The notes below the pieces were generated by a model. The model was not told where the DNA came from, searched no databases, and saw only the letters and a list, made by a program, of their open reading frames with translations. From Chloroflexota bacterium (lineage in GTDB: Bacteria > Chloroflexota > Dehalococcoidia > GIF9 > UBA5629), in contig DAISKD010000001.1 in NCBI GenBank assembly GCA_036821185.1, forward strand, positions 505,934 through 569,933: a stretch of DNA of 64,000 nucleotides, written 5' to 3'. The position numbers and the translations under genes are program-made. Below, piece after piece: positions 20,140 through 47,457 of the stretch. How positions within the stretch are numbered: the stretch's first letter is position 1; each line of letters opens with the position of its first letter.

Positions 20140-20263
20140 CTTTACCAGTCCTTTCCAGTCAGCTCAAGCGCAATTATACCATCCAGCCACCGCCCTGCGT
20201 TGCCAGGCGGACAGCCCGACCTGTTTCTTGCGCGGGCAAAAACAAAGATATAATATATAGCCG

Positions 20264-23878: not shown

Positions 23879-25026
23879 CAGAGGTTAGGAAAAATACGTC
23901 TGATGTGGTCATCATCGGCGCCGGCGTTATCGGCTGCAGCATCGCCTTTCATCTGGCAAAGCTCGGCTCCTGGGACATAACCGTACTGGAAAAGGACGAT
24001 ATCGGCTCCGGCTCCACTGGCAAATGCGCCGGCGGCATCAGACAGCAGTTCTCAACAGAAGCCAATATCCGGTTGTCCATAGAAAGCGTTCGCTTCTTCG
24101 AACATTTCGAAGAAGAAACCGGTTACCACGCCGACTTCCGCCAGAACGGCTACCTCATGCTGGCGACCACAGAAGAGGAAGTCGAAGCCTTCAAACGGAA
24201 CGTGGCATTACAGCGCAGGCTCGGCGTGGATGTCAGTCTCCTCACCCGGCAGGAGGTCAAGGGGCTTGTCCCCGCCCTCAACACCGATGATGTGCTGACA
24301 GCAAGCTACTGTCCCTCAGACGGCTATGCCGACCCTTACTGCGTGGTACAGGGCTTTGCCCGCGCCGCCAGAGAGATGGGGGTGAAGTTCCGTCGGGAGA
24401 CGGAGGTCACCGTGATCCAGAGACAAGGGCAGTCATGGAAAATCATAACCACACAGGGGGACTACTACTGCTCCATCCTGGTAATCGCTGCCGGCGCTTA
24501 TAGCGGCAACGTCGGCAAAATGCTCGGACTCGATGTGCCCCTTCATCCCCACCGCCGCCACCTGTTTATCACCGCCCCTTCTGACCAGATTCCTAAAAAT
24601 TCGCCGCTCGTCGTTGAATTCCGCACCGGCTTCTGGTTCCGCAGGGAAGGGCTCTGCCTCATCTTCGGCATGCGCAATCCAGACGAACCCCAGGGATTTG
24701 ACACCACCGTTGACTGGGGCTTTCTCCCCGCAATCGGCATCGTCGCCCAGAAACGCCTGCCTCTGCTCAATGAACTCAGCATCACCTCAGCCCAAGCTGG
24801 GCTTCACGATGATACACCTGACAGTAACGCCATCATAGGCAGAGTACCGGACATTGACGATCTTTATCTCGTCTGCGGTTTCAGCGGCCACGGCTTCATG
24901 CACTCACCAGCGGTAGGCAGAATAGTCGCCGATTTAATTGCAGGCAAAGACGCTCCGGACCTCGCCTGTTTCGCCCTGGAAAGATTCAAGCTCGGTAAAA
25001 TAACAACTGAAGGCTGTTTCATTTAG
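23875..25026 (+). CDS. FAD-dependent oxidoreductase (DAO family). GTG start overlapping the rmlD stop; the long ORF-track N-terminal extension is in rmlD's alternate frame and is rejected.
   Basis: The dinucleotide-binding motif VVIIGAGVIGCSIAFHLAK lies immediately after the GTG. The C-terminus has GFSGHGFMHSPAVG. Confidence 0.7.
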   Translation: MTEVRKNTSDVVIIGAGVIGCSIAFHLAKLGSWDITVLEKDDIGSGSTGKCAGGIRQQFSTEANIRLSIESVRFFEHFEEETGYHADFRQNGYLMLATTEEEVEAFKRNVALQRRLGVDVSLLTRQEVKGLVPALNTDDVLTASYCPSDGYADPYCVVQGFARAAREMGVKFRRETEVTVIQRQGQSWKIITTQGDYYCSILVIAAGAYSGNVGKMLGLDVPLHPHRRHLFITAPSDQIPKNSPLVVEFRTGFWFRREGLCLIFGMRNPDEPQGFDTTVDWGFLPAIGIVAQKRLPLLNELSITSAQAGLHDDTPDSNAIIGRVPDIDDLYLVCGFSGHGFMHSPAVGRIVADLIAGKDAPDLACFALERFKLGKITTEGCFI

Positions 25027-27156: not shown

Positions 27157-27286
27157 GCCCCTCGGCTCCCTGCTTACCCTCTTCCTCCATAGACCGTGAC
27201 TATGAACAACGACTGCCTAGTTACCTCTCCCTCAATGCAACGCAAGCCACCCGATTTCCTACTTACCATCTCCTATGGACCTCAAT

Positions 27287-27444
27287 TTTCCCTCTAGGGA
27301 GAGGGTTAGGGTGAAGGTTAGTGAGCCCCTCGATTTACCCTCTCCCTTGAGGGAGAGGGAATAGCTTCTTCTTTTGTGACCCAGCCTTCACGATTTACCC
27401 TCTCCCTTGAGGGAGAGGGTTAGGGTGAGGGTGAAATCAACCCC
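27287..27444. repeat. Three tandem copies of a palindromic, G-rich intergenic repeat, about 45–60 bp each, ending 27 bp upstream of wzm. Core: CGATTTACCCTCTCCC-TTGA-GGGAGAGGG-TTAGGGTGAGGGTGAAA.
   Basis: Copies lie at about 27287–27331, 27331–27390 and 27391–27444. Each contains the hairpin CCCTCTCCC-N4-GGGAGAGGG. The third carries a perfect (G3N3)x4 tract, GGGAGAGGGTTAGGGTGAGGG. Confidence 0.6.
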
Positions 27445-29153: not shown

Positions 29154-30352
29154 AATCTAAAATCTGGAGGCATCATAAACAGTGCAGCAACTCCTCAGCA
29201 ACCTACACCCCGGGCTATCATCCTGGTAACGCTGGACGCCCTCCGGGCTGACCACCTGGGGTGCTACGGTTACCCCCCACCCACCAGCCCTTTCCTGGAC
29301 AGCCTGGCATCGGATAGCATCGTCTTCGAATATGCTTTTTCGCCTATACCGCTCACCACTCCCTCCCACACCTCCATCCTCACCGGCGGATATCCCGGGT
29401 TTCACTCCATCGGCTTCCATAACGGCGACCGGCCCCTGAGCAGAGACCAGGAGGTCACCCTTCCCCAGCGCGAACTCAACCGCCCCCACGAGCCCAGGCA
29501 CAGCGCCGACCGTACCACCGCAGCGGTGCTCGACTGGCTTGGCATCCACCACACCTCCCCTTTCTTTCTCTGGGTGCACTACGGAGAGCCGCATGGACCT
29601 TACACCCCACCACCTCCCTACGATAACCTTTTCGTGGGCAATAAACTCTATGGCACCCCCCGTTTTCTGGAAAAAGTCCCCGATTGGGAAACAGGTGGTA
29701 TTCCACATTACCAGGTGCTCAAGCCCCGGCGCGATGCCGATGGCAACCTCATGGACTATGAAAAAGACCTCGCCTACTACTGGTCTTCCACGGTCTCACC
29801 GTCACCCTAGAGCAGGTGTATGTACCGCTGTTGATAAAGCCCCCCTCGCAGAGCCAGCTAAGACCGGTACGGTTCGGCATGCCTGTAAGCACCATCGACA
29901 TCATGCCCACCGTCCTCGCCTGGCTGGGACAGTATGCACAGTACCTGACGCTTCAGGGAATGAACTTGCTGCCGTCCCTTCAGGACAGCCTCATTTCCCT
30001 GCCGCAGCGGTACATATTCTCCGAGATCCCAACCCAGCTTTCGGTAATCAGCGGTCGCCTCCAGCTACTCTACGGCAAGGAAAAAAAGGACATGTCCTAT
30101 CCCCGGGTGCCGGCGGTGGAAGAGCTGAGGCTCATCGACCATACAGCCGACCCACTGGGCAGACGTGACCTTTCCACAGAATGCTCTGAGACCGCAACAG
30201 CGCTCAAGACCGCCGCCGAGTCCTATCTCAAGATTCCCCAGCCATCTTACACCGAAGGACAGCTTCCCCCAGGATGCAGAAGAAATAAGACTGCGATTGA
30301 AACAGCTTGGCCATGTGTATTAACATACTGTGGGAGAGGCAAACAAGGTTAA
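29154..30352 (+). pseudogene. Sulfatase-family gene (PF00884, alkaline phosphatase superfamily), disrupted. It has no canonical start codon, and the reading frame switches at a short poly-A run near 29760, from frame 0 (ORF 29526–29810) to frame 2 (ORF 29816–30352).
   Basis: The N-terminal part reads IILVTLDALRADHLGCYGY, then LTTPSHTSILTG, then WVHYGEPHGPY, in a frame with no ATG/GTG/TTG after the upstream stop at 29151. The C-terminal part reads LLLVFHGLTV...VYVPLLIKPP...STIDIMPTVLAWLG and is open from 29762 in a different frame. Confidence 0.6.
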
Positions 30353-31970
30353 GGCAATGACCCAAGTATGCTCTGTCTGTGGAAGTAGCAACACCGAATT
30401 GGAGGACAAACTTCAGAGTTCCTTCTCCGACGAGTTGCTTGAGCTACATCGTTGCAGATCCTGTGGCACATTGTTTTACCCGCATTCAAAAGGCATTTCC
30501 TACGATGAATGTAGCTTAGGATCCACTAAATTCTATATAGAGTTTAACGCGGGCCTACATGCCCCCTCCCACTTTATAACCAACCTGCGTCAGTTAGCCA
30601 GGGCAAAGCCAAAACCTAGTTTTTTAGATGTCGGCTGCGCCTTCGGTTTTGCACTGGACATGGCCCGATACCTGGGCTGGGATGCCACTGGGGTAGAACC
30701 ATCGCCCATCGCCTTGGAAGGGCAAAGAACGCTGCAGTTAAACATCATACAGGATTACTTAGAGTCAGCCGACTTGCCGTCCGCCTACGACCTCGTCCTA
30801 AGCAGCGAAACTATTGAGCATGTCCCAGACCCGCAGGGCTTCCTCAACCTGATCAACAAATACCTAAAGCCTGACGGTATTCTGTGCCTGACCACGCCGA
30901 ACAGCGAAGCATATGCCTCTGAATCAGTAGGAGAAAAGCTAGCGATGGCCTCCGCAGGGGTTCATCTCAATATCTTTTCACCCTACTCCATCGGGTTGCT
31001 CTTGGAGAGAGCTGGCTTTGCCGACTGTCGAATAGAGACCAGCGGGGGCGTCACAGGGAAAAAAGGGCTGGTGGTTTTTGCCACTAAGACGGGCAGACTT
31101 CCTAATTTTAAATACATAGCACCACTCGACAGCTCTTGCATCAAATTCATGATCGAATATCTCGAATATTTGGTCGAGGCCCGGGAAAAAGAACGGGACT
31201 ACCTGTACGATGGGGCACTATACAGGCTCGTAGAGCTATATACGAACTTAGGGAATCTGGCGCAGGCACACAGGCTCAGCATCAAGTTGGATGAAAGCAT
31301 CAGTGCAAAATATACGGTCGTCAGAGAGGAGTCCATAGATGCTTTTCTTCAAGTAGCCCGGCAAAAAGCAATCGGTTTCGACGATTATATCGCCAGTTCG
31401 CCATCATTCCTATCGCGATATCTCTATTGCAAAGGCATGGTCTGCTTAAACTTGCTGAGCGACTTTGCCAGAGCGGAAAAGCTCTTCACTCTGGCACACG
31501 ATTTGTTTAGCCACGAACAAGACACATTCAGACAATCTTTCGCCTCAAATTGGCAAATGGCCAGCAGGGCAAAATATCATGCGGCCCTCAGTATGTTGTA
31601 TGCCAAAAACAAAAAAGAAGGTCTACGCATTTTCGATCAACTTTTATCGAATGAACATGATTGCCCTTCGGACCTGATTCCGCAGGTCCATCTTTACAAA
31701 GGCATAGCCCATTTGCAACTCGGTGAGATTATCAGCGCACTAAAATCGTTTACACTTGGTTTAAAAAAGGCAACCAAACAAGCTTTTGTCAGACGCGCCA
31801 TCGATTATATAATCCTTGTCCTAAGACAGGGATGGGAGTTATCTCTTTACGCAACCATCACAGATCCCAGTACCTATACTAAGGTACCCCGCTTTAGAAA
31901 ACTCAAGCTCCTGTTCTGGTTCACATTTAGGAGACTCAGGCGACTTCTAACGTTCATGTTCGTCAAATAG
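30330..31970 (+). CDS. Class I SAM-dependent methyltransferase with an N-terminal zinc ribbon and a C-terminal helical (TPR-like) domain of about 280 aa
   Basis: The zinc ribbon reads CSVCGSS...CRSCGT. SAM motif I FLDVGCAFGF and motif II-III LVLSSETIEHVPDPQGFLNLINKYLKPDGIL are present. The start is either 30330 (GTG) or 30358 (ATG). Confidence 0.7.
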   Translation: MGEANKVKAMTQVCSVCGSSNTELEDKLQSSFSDELLELHRCRSCGTLFYPHSKGISYDECSLGSTKFYIEFNAGLHAPSHFITNLRQLARAKPKPSFLDVGCAFGFALDMARYLGWDATGVEPSPIALEGQRTLQLNIIQDYLESADLPSAYDLVLSSETIEHVPDPQGFLNLINKYLKPDGILCLTTPNSEAYASESVGEKLAMASAGVHLNIFSPYSIGLLLERAGFADCRIETSGGVTGKKGLVVFATKTGRLPNFKYIAPLDSSCIKFMIEYLEYLVEAREKERDYLYDGALYRLVELYTNLGNLAQAHRLSIKLDESISAKYTVVREESIDAFLQVARQKAIGFDDYIASSPSFLSRYLYCKGMVCLNLLSDFARAEKLFTLAHDLFSHEQDTFRQSFASNWQMASRAKYHAALSMLYAKNKKEGLRIFDQLLSNEHDCPSDLIPQVHLYKGIAHLQLGEIISALKSFTLGLKKATKQAFVRRAIDYIILVLRQGWELSLYATITDPSTYTKVPRFRKLKLLFWFTFRRLRRLLTFMFVK

Positions 31971-31980
31971 TGGTGGCTAT

Positions 31981-32913
31981 TCACAACATCCGGCTACCCC
32001 TGCTACCATCAGGCACCCATAAGCAACGCCCACTGGTAAGCATTTGGATATAAGCGTCTCCTCTTCTTCTATTCCTTTGAAGAAGTCTCCTCTTGCGCCT
32101 TATGCCCTGATTCACTAACACCTCTTTCAAAAACAAGATTACTCCTATGAGCCATGGTATAGGTGCGGGGCTAAACAAACTACTCGGCCAGAATGCTTTG
32201 ACAAAATTCCCCAACTCCATGTTCTTAAAGTAAGTCAAAAGCATGTTTCTACAAATTCTTATTTTCCTCTTAATGCTCATCCCGTAGGCAACGCCTCCAA
32301 TATGATGGACCACAATGTTAGGGTTATGTACACACCAGTAGCCTTGAAGATTTATCCTGTACCCTAGATCATGGTCTTCCCAATCAGACACAAAATCACC
32401 ATCTAGGAATTCGCCGAGTTCACGCAACACATCGCGGCGATATATAGCAGCAGCACCACAGGGCGCGAGACAGAAACATGGAGTGTAAATAGCCTGACGG
32501 TGGACCGCTATCAGCCCGCTGGCATCAAAAAAAACAGGCGCGTACCTGACAAACGACCCCCTGGTAGCAATACTGCAGGATACGGCTGCGATTTTCGGAT
32601 TCGACTCCAGAGACTCCACTAGCCTTTCGACAAAGTCGCGCGGAACCGAACAATCAGGGTTCAGCAATACGATGTACTTGCCAGCCGCGCAATTCAGCCC
32701 AACGTTATTGGCTCTCACAAAGTCCACATTCTCGGGTAAAGCTATGAGCTTGACTCGGTGATAGTTATCTCGAATGAGCTCCCTAGAGCCGTCTGTAGAG
32801 GCATTGTCCACCACTATGACTTCATGATCGGGGTATGTCTGGTCAAGGACTGTGTCCAGACATTCGGTGATGTACCTTTTGCCATTGTAATTTACAATTA
32901 TGGTGCTGACAGC
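31981..32913 (-). CDS. Family 2 glycosyltransferase. The conserved N-terminus begins immediately after an in-frame TAG (32914–32916), and no canonical start codon lies upstream of the internal GTG at 32814.
   Basis: Hand translation of 32913 to 32815 gives AVSTIIVNYNGKRYITECLDTVLDQTYPDHEVIVVDNASTDGS, a canonical GT2 N-terminus. It is continuous with the ORF-track protein that starts MVDNASTDGS. Confidence 0.65.
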   Translation of the reverse strand, partial: AVSTIIVNYNGKRYITECLDTVLDQTYPDHEVIVVDNASTDGSRELIRDNYHRVKLIALPENVDFVRANNVGLNCAAGKYIVLLNPDCSVPRDFVERLVESLESNPKIAAVSCSIATRGSFVRYAPVFFDASGLIAVHRQAIYTPCFCLAPCGAAAIYRRDVLRELGEFLDGDFVSDWEDHDLGYRINLQGYWCVHNPNIVVHHIGGVAYGMSIKRKIRICRNMLLTYFKNMELGNFVKAFWPSSLFSPAPIPWLIGVILFLKEVLVNQGIRRKRRLLQRNRRRGDAYIQMLTSGRCLWVPDGSRGSRML

Positions 32914-33495
32914 CTATCTTTCCTTACCCTTGGCCGGCGGGATCGTCCAAACGATGAAGAAAGGCTTGACTTTCACTTTTTTTACGCCAAGAGTGACGTG
33001 CTCACTCTCTCTATCTGCCCCTTTCACACAATATACTGCGATGGTGATATCATCAAAATAATCAGAATGTAATGATAGAGCGACCATGAGATTTTGGGAC
33101 GCGCAGTTGCACAGAGGTTCGAAGATAAACGAACATGATTCTTTGTCTTTCACCGCGGACAGATCCACATGACACTGCCGAAGGGGCTTCGCTGAGTACT
33201 CCTTATACAAACCCAGCGTGAGGCGTCCTTCCCCTTCCCGGAAAGACTTCCCGCCAGTGCCGAAAATGAAATCAATCCGGTACAGACCATCTTCTTCGTA
33301 TACGAGAGGTGAGACTATGCTACTATTATTTTTGAGTAGTACTATCTTCGGGCGTGTAAACAGTCGCGCCCATAGTCTTCTGACAAAGTACACAAACCTT
33401 TCCAACTCAGACCAGCCTTCGCCTGCTATAAAGCCGACGCTGTTTGTCCTTGTAGTTGATTGTACCAGATATGTCAAGACACCGCGCGCATGCAA
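32914..33495 (-). CDS. Hypothetical 193-aa ORF, in frame with the downstream GT2 and separated from it only by one TAG codon. It may be an N-terminal domain of a fused two-domain enzyme.
   Basis: The end coordinates 33495 and 32814 differ by 681, which is 227 x 3, so the two ORFs share a frame. No recognisable domain was found. Confidence 0.35.
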   Translation of the reverse strand: MHARGVLTYLVQSTTRTNSVGFIAGEGWSELERFVYFVRRLWARLFTRPKIVLLKNNSSIVSPLVYEEDGLYRIDFIFGTGGKSFREGEGRLTLGLYKEYSAKPLRQCHVDLSAVKDKESCSFIFEPLCNCASQNLMVALSLHSDYFDDITIAVYCVKGADRESEHVTLGVKKVKVKPFFIVWTIPPAKGKER

Positions 33496-33520
33496 CGCAG
33501 TCCACTGTGCAAGCCCACCT

Positions 33521-34290
33521 TAAATCAGCAGCGAACATTCAAGTACCTGCAGATGGCGTAAAATACATCCTGCGGTCTCTCTATTAGGATGGTTGATGTT
33601 GGCGATTATCAGCAGCGCATTTTCGTGGTGGTCACCTTTTATCACACCGTGCTCCGTCTCCCGGGGCAATGTCTGCACCTTAGCCTCACCGAAGGGGCAG
33701 AAGCCGTGGTCGGAGACGATGATCAGTCCATTGGTCCGTCCTCCATAAAGCCGGTGGCAAACAGGAGTTCGCCAATCCTGTCATCCAGCCTGCGGCACCA
33801 TTCCAGGACGGTGTCCTCTCCCCAGTGAAAGTGCTGCGCCCTGTCCAGCAGGGTGTACACCGCGATGAGCAGGTCAGGTCTTCTTAGCAGTAGCGCCCTG
33901 GTCCTGGCAGTCACCGCTCAAGCCCCTCCTGCCATTCCCTCTCATTGATTGATAGCCCGAACCCTACCGGTCGGAAATCCACATTGAAGCAGTAAGGCGG
34001 CACCACAAAGGGTACATTCAATACACAGACCTTCTTCCCCTCCCTCTGCACTATGTCCCAGATGAAGTCAACCTTTATGTCCTCCCGCCTAACTATGTTC
34101 CCCCAACCACAAAGCTGTTGTGTCCGTGTTCCCGTTATGTCCTGCCGCAGAATATACCACACCATATCGAAGGCGAGACCGGCTTCTCCCTGATGACCAG
34201 CTCGCGGCAATCAGCGGTCTGGCTCAGCTTTTTGAACGAAGGCAGGAAGTCCAGGTTCGGCCTTACCACCGTCCAGGTGGCACCGTCTAT
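33521..34290 (-). pseudogene. Type I phosphodiesterase / nucleotide pyrophosphatase family gene (PF01663, alkaline phosphatase superfamily), shattered over at least 3 reading frames
   Basis: The frames are ORF 33911–34210, ORF 33723–33914 and an unlisted frame at 33521–33720. The fragments read DLLIAVYTLLDRAQHFHWGED and ...FMEDGPMD(stop), with the next frame reading NGLIIVSDHGFCPFGEAKV...HGVIKGDHH. Confidence 0.55.
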
Positions 34291-34304
34291 CCCCAGGACG
34301 AATA

Positions 34305-35138
34305 TCAATATCTGACCTCCAGCACTATGCCCGCGCCGATGTTTTTGCCCCGTGACAGGACAAACCTGCCCAGCTCCGGTATTTCACAGAACCTCTCCAC
34401 CACCAGCGGCTCGGTGTCAAAAACGATGGTCGCCGCCTCGTGTTCGCCAATGTGGTCAGGACGCTCCATCAGTACCTCACCGGTCTCCGAGTCGATCTTC
34501 TGACAAAACTCTCTGATACAGCACCTGACCCGTCGTGTACCGCATCTCAATTCCAGCGTGTCGCCAGTGCTCAGCCTGCCATCAAGCAGCACCGCCTCGC
34601 CAAGGAACCTGGTGGTCACCACCGGAGCACTGTCGACCAGCCCACCGACCTCGCCGCGCACTGCCCTACAGGTGGTAACAAGTCCCACGCTGTCTCCTTC
34701 CTCTGCTTCCTCAAGTTCACCCTCGAACCTCCTTATTTGCTGCACCCTCCCTCTGGACCCGGAGGGATAGAATACCAGTTCATCGCCTTTACACAGTTTG
34801 CCCGATTCCACCCTGCCCACCACGATTTCCCGCCCATCAACGGTATAAATATCCTGGACCACAAACCTCAACGGTCTGGTCTGCCGTCTTATCTCCATGC
34901 TGTCCAGCGCCTCTATAAGGGTAGCCCGTTATACCAGGGCATCCTTCCCGATTTGCGGTAAATGTTGTCCCCCCATGGCTGACCCCGGGATGAACGTAAC
35001 TCCATGATAACCGAACGAGTCCAGCAGGGCGGCGACTTTTTCCCTGACATCATCGAAGACCTCCTGCTGGTAGCCTACAGCGTCCATCTCGTTCACCACC
35101 AGCAGTTCCTTCAGCCCGAGCATCCGTGTCAGGAACAC
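34305..35138 (-). pseudogene. Sulfate adenylyltransferase large subunit-like GTPase (CysN/NodQ-like). It lacks the N-terminal P-loop region and is interrupted by an in-frame TAA at 34929–34931.
   Basis: The fragments LGLKELLVVNEMDAVGYQQEVFDDVREKV...IPGSAMGG and TLIEALDSMEIRRQTRPLRFVVQDIY...VVGRVESGKLCKGDEL...GRFVLSRGKNIGAGIV align by eye to the CysN G-domain end and domains II/III. ORFs 34929–35138 and 34305–34898 share a frame. Confidence 0.6.
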
Positions 35139-35182
35139 GTACCTCAGAGCTGGTTCAGATAGATCAGCGGTACCGACTGACT

Positions 35183-47300: not shown

Positions 47301-47457
47301 AGAAATGGCAAAAGAACTGCACGATACCGTTTCCCTGTTCAAAGTGAGCAGTAACGGGGGTAATGGGGGCGGTCGAAAGTCTAGAGAGAAACTGCTCAAG
47401 GAAACAATCGTCGGTGTTAAGGTTGAGCCCAGCGCGGCAACACCGACCAAAAACTAG
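44389..47457 (+). CDS. Methyl-accepting chemotaxis protein (1022 aa) with TM segments, HAMP domains, a Cys/His-rich PAS-like domain and a C-terminal MCP signalling domain
   Basis: The signalling-domain sequence [44 protein letters not shown] is present. The PAS-like segment reads [22 protein letters not shown]. The ribosome-binding site is AAAGGGGG. Confidence 0.9.

Follow-up and report, generated by a model that had tools for sequence, protein, structure and literature searches.

An in-frame amber codon interrupts a gene for a two-domain glycosyltransferase in an uncultured hot-spring Dehalococcoidia bacterium, probably through a recent nonsense mutation in the linker between the two domains and within an accessory module that is itself in decay. 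The gene lies on the minus strand of a 64,000-nucleotide stretch of a Chloroflexota assembly (GCA_036821185.1, contig DAISKD010000001.1, positions 505,934 to 569,933), referred to here as the window, and the locus is an accessory module of a cell-surface polysaccharide cluster that depends on an ATP-binding cassette (ABC) transporter. The frame preceding the TAG codes for a homologue of the N-terminal domain of glycosyltransferases that are encoded elsewhere by single open reading frames (ORFs), all of which carry a sense codon at the TAG position, and genes on either side of the window copy are disrupted relative to a related genome in which the whole cluster is intact.

An amber codon separates a glycosyltransferase domain from its start

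The minus strand reads ...AAG GGT AAG GAA AGA TAG GCT GTC AGC ACC ATA ATT GTA AAT TAC AAT GGC... and translates as ...KGKER*AVSTIIVNYNG, giving a conceptual junction across the TAG of KGKER-X-AVSTIIVNYNGK. The first-pass annotation of the window, made from the sequence without database searches, had placed this TAG just before the N-terminus of a family 2 glycosyltransferase (GT2), and profile searches bear this out. Pfam PF00535 matches residues 3-166 after the TAG with profile positions 1-167 of 168 (110.5 bits, cutoff 23.3, E = 1.1e-31) and PDB GT2 chains align from residues 2-4 after the TAG. The same annotation took the GTG at 32814 to be the only in-frame start, one that would delete the nucleotide-binding N-terminus. 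Past the TAG, no ATG, GTG or TTG does in fact occur in frame before this GTG, which lies 34 codons into the GT2 domain; as judged from a model of the intact homologue P0004 its product would lack 34 residues comprising β1, α1 and most of β2. The window GT2 frame consequently offers a premature stop, and then GTG 32814, where a start codon before β1 would be expected.

Upstream of the TAG the frame is open for 201 codons, a length with a chance probability of about 3e-5 as estimated from base composition. A 193-residue ORF had been proposed here in the same frame as GT2; the frame stands, but the gene segment is probably shorter. The true start is most likely TTG 33405 (163 codons) rather than TTG 33495 (193 codons), since the N-termini of homologous proteins (MVNRLV... 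and MINRVLNFVKRLL...) align with the window sequence MERFVYFVRRLW... at TTG 33405. Two other interpretations of the junction were rejected. The AAGGAA upstream of the TAG could resemble a Shine-Dalgarno sequence, but it has no start codon suitably spaced from it and simply codes for K-G-K-E. Destruction of a start codon, either by an insertion turning ATG into ATAG or by a change of TTG to TAG, does not fit an upstream frame that is homologous to a fused N-terminal domain. No convincing promoter or terminator signal for independent expression of the GT2 half was found.

The upstream frame belongs to a rare domain fused to GT2

All complete close relatives are single ORFs in which the N-terminal domain is fused to GT2: P0003 (481 amino acids), P0004 (471), P0005 (472), P0013 (478) and P0124 (497). 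They are about 165 residues longer than plain GT2 proteins, the closest being 471-481 amino acids long. At the position of the TAG, intact homologues carry a sense codon for proline (CCT, CCA) or serine (TCC), and the linker around it is poorly conserved. When the window gene is conceptually read through, its upstream ORF aligns along its whole length with the N-terminal extension of the homologues, for example EDGLYRIDFIF with ERDGLYRLDILL and FIFEPLCNC with FTFEPLRDC. A tblastn search with P0004 against the window returned one high-scoring segment pair (HSP) that covers residues 2-470 and runs straight across the TAG at 48.5% identity. The GT2 part is 55-60% identical to P0003-P0005, and the N-terminal domain is 29-38% identical to the three closest relatives. 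The frames of the P0003, P0004 and P0005 group are uninterrupted whereas the window copy is broken by the TAG in its linker.

Searches with the upstream segment on its own point the same way. The segment matches no Pfam or NCBIfam family, and a word-indexed search found it alone; its relatives emerged when phmmer was run exhaustively against 1.84 billion representative proteins, with six matches in all. These include P0004 (E = 6e-20, residues ~7-154), P0003 (3e-8) and P0248, together with P0249 and P0250, two repeat-rich proteins judged to be spurious. P0248 is 143 amino acids long, ends within the N-terminal domain and was judged an incomplete prediction. A contig profile search with the family alignment added, among the matches listed, distant single-domain GT2 loci only and no extra fused orthologues. 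By sequence comparison, the upstream frame is the N-terminal part of one two-domain gene and not a separate gene, because it is homologous to the N-terminal domain of single-ORF glycosyltransferases. Fusion of the region to GT2 elsewhere, in P0003, P0004, P0005, P0013 and P0124, was the comparison that the first-pass annotation had proposed, and it favors the first of its three readings, in which a two-domain protein has suffered an amber nonsense mutation. The locus also exposes a very rare and so far unannotated β-sandwich domain of about 165 amino acids, with four credible relatives among the 1.84 billion proteins (the members named are P0003, P0004, P0005, P0013 and P0248), that occurs only fused to GT2 except at this split locus and in the 143-residue, probably partial P0248.

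The amber codon recurs in several assemblies and is unflagged in public records

The region is 100% identical in the JGI assembly 3300010288, in ENA ERZ1744544 (coverage about 12.7x) and in the Logan assembly of SRR5214706, a metagenome from a South African 50 °C thermal spring. Two of these assemblies differ by one mismatch over 19.9 kb, and two more contigs, 621 kb and 1.13 Mb long, carry gene calls split in the same way according to cluster records. An assembler artefact is thereby made less likely, although reads or samples may be common to the assemblies and their agreement is no substitute for read-level support. The TAG could still be a sequencing or consensus error or an assembled minority allele, with a sense codon in the real population, and the possible origin of the public assemblies from the same or related samples means that their agreement is not fully independent. 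We consider this very unlikely given the identity across three assembly pipelines, the coverage of the ~12.7x contig with its single mismatch in 19.9 kb, and the many nearby lesions that show real gene decay. Substitution errors are, moreover, rare in short-read consensus sequences.

The JGI, ENA, NCBI and Logan pipelines all report a hypothetical protein of 159-193 amino acids and a truncated GT2 of 245-277 amino acids, with differing and arbitrary starts. The N-terminal part is started at 33477 or 33393, and GTG 32814 is used for a 277-residue 'GT2'. The public proteins of the locus are P0001, P0002, P0122, P0123 and P0125-P0127, none of which is flagged as a pseudogene. The appropriate annotation would be one amber-interrupted gene of about 474 codons flagged as a pseudogene.

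The GT2 domain is conserved but has no canonical start of its own

The catalytic half of the gene bears no trace of decay other than the TAG. Its motif residues (VVDNxS, NPD and WEDHD) are kept, with D200, N201, S203, N249, P250, D251 and W342-D346 forming invariant columns that include the window sequence. Of 88 GT2 sites at which four intact homologues are invariant it retains 84, and of ten such sites the N-terminal domain retains eight. This retention equals that of each intact homologue measured against the others, and the ratio of N-terminal domain to GT2 identity falls in the range of intact pairs.

The separate GT2 with an ATT or ATA start that the first-pass annotation had offered as an alternative finds no counterpart among relatives. 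Complete single-domain GT2 proteins keep the whole of β1 together with 1-17 preceding residues and none starts inside β1, where the two near-cognate codons of the window lie; the orthologues, for their part, are fused and not split. A stable fission, yielding a small β-sandwich protein that ends at the TAG and a GT2 with a rare ATA or ATT start, is therefore barely credible. Gene fission of multidomain enzymes does occur, and public gene callers annotate two genes here. Against this, no relative is split (the short match P0248 being judged incomplete), the second half is without a start or ribosome-binding site, and the split point shows no sign of adaptation, be it a new start or an overlap motif.

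Stop codon usage and RNA context do not favor decoding of the TAG

Among 51 confident, non-overlapping ORFs of at least 150 amino acids in the window, 20 end in TAG, 19 in TGA and 12 in TAA. At least three of the TAG-ended genes (FAD-oxidoreductase, ABC-2 permease and ABC ATPase) stop within three residues of the ends of their orthologues in assembly GCA_034433775.1 (L085). In three adjacent same-frame gene pairs an ordinary intergenic stop, a TAG with little else, lies between the two ORFs, and an ATG start follows just downstream (Table 1); efficient TAG decoding would fuse all three, which argues against it. The RNA around the interrupting TAG is unstructured, a 161-nucleotide fold having z = -0.01 with 93 of 200 shuffles folding as well, and neither a conserved stop nor a stimulatory RNA structure or context, as seen in programmed readthrough, was found; the stop is unique to the window lineage. 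ARAGORN run over the 64-kb window gives only a tRNA-Ala and no tRNA-CUA, and family scans of the window proteins found no pyrrolysine (Pyl) or methylamine methyltransferase genes. Stop-codon readthrough, the remaining reading of the first-pass annotation, thus gains no positive support from stop usage, RNA folding or the tRNA and Pyl scans.

UAG-encoded pyrrolysine is known outside methylamine methyltransferases, for example in Thg1 of Methanosarcina acetivorans. The host could accordingly possess a UAG-decoding system, pyrrolysine or a dedicated suppressor tRNA, by which the linker TAG would be translated on purpose into a full-length enzyme, perhaps under some conditions only. The host belongs to the Chloroflexota and Dehalococcoidia, for which Chloroflexi-type pylS genes and a Dehalococcoidia lineage with PylRS have been reported (PMC5424206), and the frame is preserved across the TAG. 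As in Pyl systems, an in-frame TAG stands at a substitution-tolerant position of an otherwise intact gene. Pyl hosts, however, have a demonstrated Pyl system and, in archaea, depleted TAG stops, an avoidance that is not required in bacteria, whereas in the window TAG is the commonest stop and the 64 kb hold no Pyl component. None of the orthologues has a TAG at the homologous site, and the adjoining genes are pseudogenes with frameshifts and TAA stops. We regard purposeful decoding as highly improbable; were it true, the glycosyltransferase would be made only with decoding switched on, a bacterial case in which UAG gates the expression of a gene other than a methyltransferase. A specifically archaeal, pyrrolysine-based account, prompted by the archaeal label of P0005, was set aside as the leading account on the same stop usage and on the ClpC homologues, which are 79-92% identical and come from Chloroflexi/Dehalococcoidia metagenome-assembled genomes.

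Neighboring genes of the module are disrupted

The L085 genome, which carries P0004, has an undamaged version of the cluster with its genes arranged alike. The series starts with two epimerases, an FAD oxidoreductase, GT4, GT2, ABC-2 permease and ABC ATPase, continues with sulfatase-like (472 amino acids), two-domain GT2 (471), methyltransferase (520) and phosphodiesterase-like (261) genes, and ends with CysN (402), CysD and TauE. In intact relatives the accessory module comprises the genes from sulfatase-like to TauE. A second assembly, GCA_038825825.1 (L088), has the same local gene order, and the neighbors of P0004 and P0005 are alike in including sulfatase-like, methyltransferase and phosphodiesterase-like genes. 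In tblastn comparisons with L085 the core cluster genes of the window are intact and 71-87% identical.

The accessory genes present a different picture, and the earlier count of this gene as the third disrupted one in the region agrees with the damage seen relative to L085 in the sulfatase-like, phosphodiesterase-like and CysN-like neighbors. The sulfatase-like pseudogene has a 37-residue internal deletion, has lost residues 240-286 with a change of frame and contains no ATG, GTG or TTG before 29526. The phosphodiesterase-like pseudogene is spread over three frames with at least three frameshifts, has a TAA (34135-34137) in place of a tyrosine codon, and survives in fragments 75-84% identical to the L085 orthologue. 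In the CysN-like remnant the G4 motif NKMD is changed to NEMD and an in-frame TAA is present at 34929-34931. For CysD and TauE, tblastn over the whole window gave nothing at E ≤ 1e-3. The premature stops in these neighbors are TAA, so premature termination in the region is not specific to TAG. The convergent methyltransferase gene next to the glycosyltransferase appears intact (Methyltransf_23, 1e-24), with one tblastn HSP that covers residues 12-514 of the 520-residue L085 orthologue at 46% identity.

Table 1. Coordinates of the interrupted glycosyltransferase gene, its neighbors and the same-frame TAG-separated gene pairs in the window.
Feature	Position	Strand	Remarks
In-frame TAG (amber)	32914-32916	-	Interdomain linker, two codons before GT2 β1
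GTG, first canonical in-frame start past TAG	32812-32814	-	Corresponds to VVDNAS at P0004 residue 201
ATA ATT, in frame, near-cognate	32896-32901	-	Inside β1
N-terminal domain segment	32914-33405	-	163 codons, from most likely start TTG 33405 to TAG; mechanical ORF extends to TTG 33495
GT2 (GT-A) catalytic domain and C-terminal helical region	31981-32913	-	310 codons and TGA stop; without own canonical start
S-adenosylmethionine (SAM)-dependent methyltransferase	30330-31970	+	Convergent with glycosyltransferase; appears intact
Sulfatase-like (alkaline-phosphatase superfamily) pseudogene	29196-30265	+	Compared with 472-aa L085 orthologue
Phosphodiesterase/nucleotide-pyrophosphatase-family pseudogene	33531-34308	-	Compared with 261-aa L085 orthologue
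CysN-like GTPase remnant	34314-35162	-	Residues 115-400 of 402-aa L085 orthologue remain
Same-frame TAG pair	25024-25026		FAD oxidoreductase/GT4
Same-frame TAG pair	47455-47457		Methyl-accepting chemotaxis protein (MCP)/CheW
Same-frame TAG pair	20258-20260		ORF 19694-20260/RmlA-like

The methyltransferase and two-domain GT2 genes form a block (30330-33520) that is inverted relative to both L085 and L088. Its GC content is 0.47-0.49 compared to 0.55-0.58 in the flanks, and its identity to L085 is 46-48%, against 61-87% for the flanking genes, dead ones included. The block looks like a swapped or rearranged cassette, and an inverted, more diverged position of this kind is, besides the linker TAG, what sets the window copy apart from the P0004/P0005 group. 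No inverted repeats were found at its borders, and the upstream intergenic DNA could be aligned with its counterpart in neither L085 nor L088.

A probable recent nonsense mutation in a decaying module

Taken with the fused homologues, the state of the neighbors points to a probable explanation: the linker of a two-domain glycosyltransferase has recently acquired an amber nonsense mutation, within an accessory module in decay. The module appears to be in decay because the neighbors carry deletions, frameshifts and TAA stops where L085 is intact, and the mutation would be recent because it is a single lesion in a gene that has kept 84 of 88 GT2 sites. The ancestral gene would have been a single ORF of about 474 codons encoding an N-terminal β-sandwich, a disordered linker, a GT-A domain and a C-terminal helical region. 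Selection on the glycosyltransferase may have been relaxed before this first inactivating mutation, in which a single base change would have turned a linker codon into the amber stop. Initiated at TTG 33405, translation would now end at the TAG and yield the 163-residue N-terminal domain only, and the catalytic domain, left without a usable start, would give little or no active enzyme.

Surface-polysaccharide genes are known to be inactivated by point mutations or insertions, as in the O-antigen clusters of Yersinia pestis and E. coli K-12. There, too, a simple mutation knocks out a glycosyltransferase while the cluster core remains and other pseudogenes are present; the window differs in its uncultured Dehalococcoidia host and in the nature of the lesion, a single amber codon in a linker. 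On this reading the locus records the stepwise loss of an accessory glycan-modification module, with sulfate-activation, sulfatase-like, phosphodiesterase-like and glycosyltransferase genes lost or damaged and the core ABC-transporter polysaccharide genes left intact. It does not challenge current understanding.

Several observations weigh against a dead gene. There is exactly one lesion and the conserved sites are kept, so that loss of function is inferred from context and is not visible as decay; the absence of decay beyond the TAG could mean either that the mutation is recent or that the gene retains a use. Immediately ahead of β1, the TAG occupies a disordered stretch of linker, the one site at which any inserted amino acid would be harmless, and the partner methyltransferase is intact. 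The TAG itself rests on assembly consensus rather than on reads. Pyl-utilising Dehalococcoidia have been reported (PMC5424206), and the Pyl scans described above cover the 64-kb window.

Some of these points would also suit a leaky but useful gene, in which near-cognate readthrough of the UAG, or termination followed by reinitiation at the nearby in-frame ATA or ATT, supplies full-length product or a nearly complete catalytic domain in small quantity, yet enough for selection to be maintained. The lone lesion, its place in a disordered and non-conserved linker, the full retention of conserved sites and the intact methyltransferase partner are all compatible with such a gene, and the existence of single-domain GT2 relatives indicates that the catalytic domain can work alone in principle. 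We nevertheless consider it unlikely. Basal UAG readthrough and non-canonical initiation typically amount to 1% or less, and no stimulatory RNA structure accompanies the TAG. As read from the sequence, neither a canonical start nor a well-placed Shine-Dalgarno sequence follows it. A start at ATA or ATT would remove part of β1, a position at which no complete relative starts, and the surrounding pathway genes are dead.

Structural models and further observations on the cluster

An AlphaFold model of the window N-terminal domain (pLDDT 71.7) contains one helix followed by about ten strands; its PDB matches, all weak, are to domains of the jelly-roll and carbohydrate-binding types. The P0004 model shows a confident GT-A domain with β1 at 169-175, α1 at 179-190 and β2 at 197-203, preceded by a linker (129-164) with pLDDT below 50. 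The equivalent of the TAG is P167 of P0004, at the end of this low-confidence linker and just before β1.

GlfT2 enzymes are built from an N-terminal β-sandwich, a GT-A domain and a C-terminal helical domain. The top whole-protein Foldseek matches of the P0004 model are GlfT2 structures (PDB 4fix, 9dtp and 9nj1) aligned over about 490-498 columns with the N-terminal domain included, at 12-13% identity, a TM score of about 0.45 and a root-mean-square deviation of about 13 Å, the confidence of the N-terminal domain model being modest. From this match and the known GlfT2 layout, the models suggest that P0004 may share the three-part architecture of these polymerising galactofuranosyltransferases, a resemblance only and not membership. 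No UDP-galactopyranose mutase or GLF-family match was found among the cluster proteins scanned, and the 383-residue FAD protein matches DAO-type families.

P0005 is labelled Candidatus Methanosuratincola sp. but lies on a 5.5-kb contig of L088 that has the sulfatase, GT2, methyltransferase and phosphodiesterase order of the Dehalococcoidia cluster. The mismatch between label and gene order suggests either mis-binning or transfer of the module between domains of life.

The intergenic region between the 302-residue GT2 gene and the ABC-2 permease gene (27170-27420) holds two identical 29-nucleotide copies (27331-27359 and 27391-27419) and weaker copies of the same element. The 29-nucleotide copies contain the palindrome ACCCTCTCCCTTGAGGGAGAGGGT and resemble hairpin repeats of the repetitive extragenic palindromic (REP) type.

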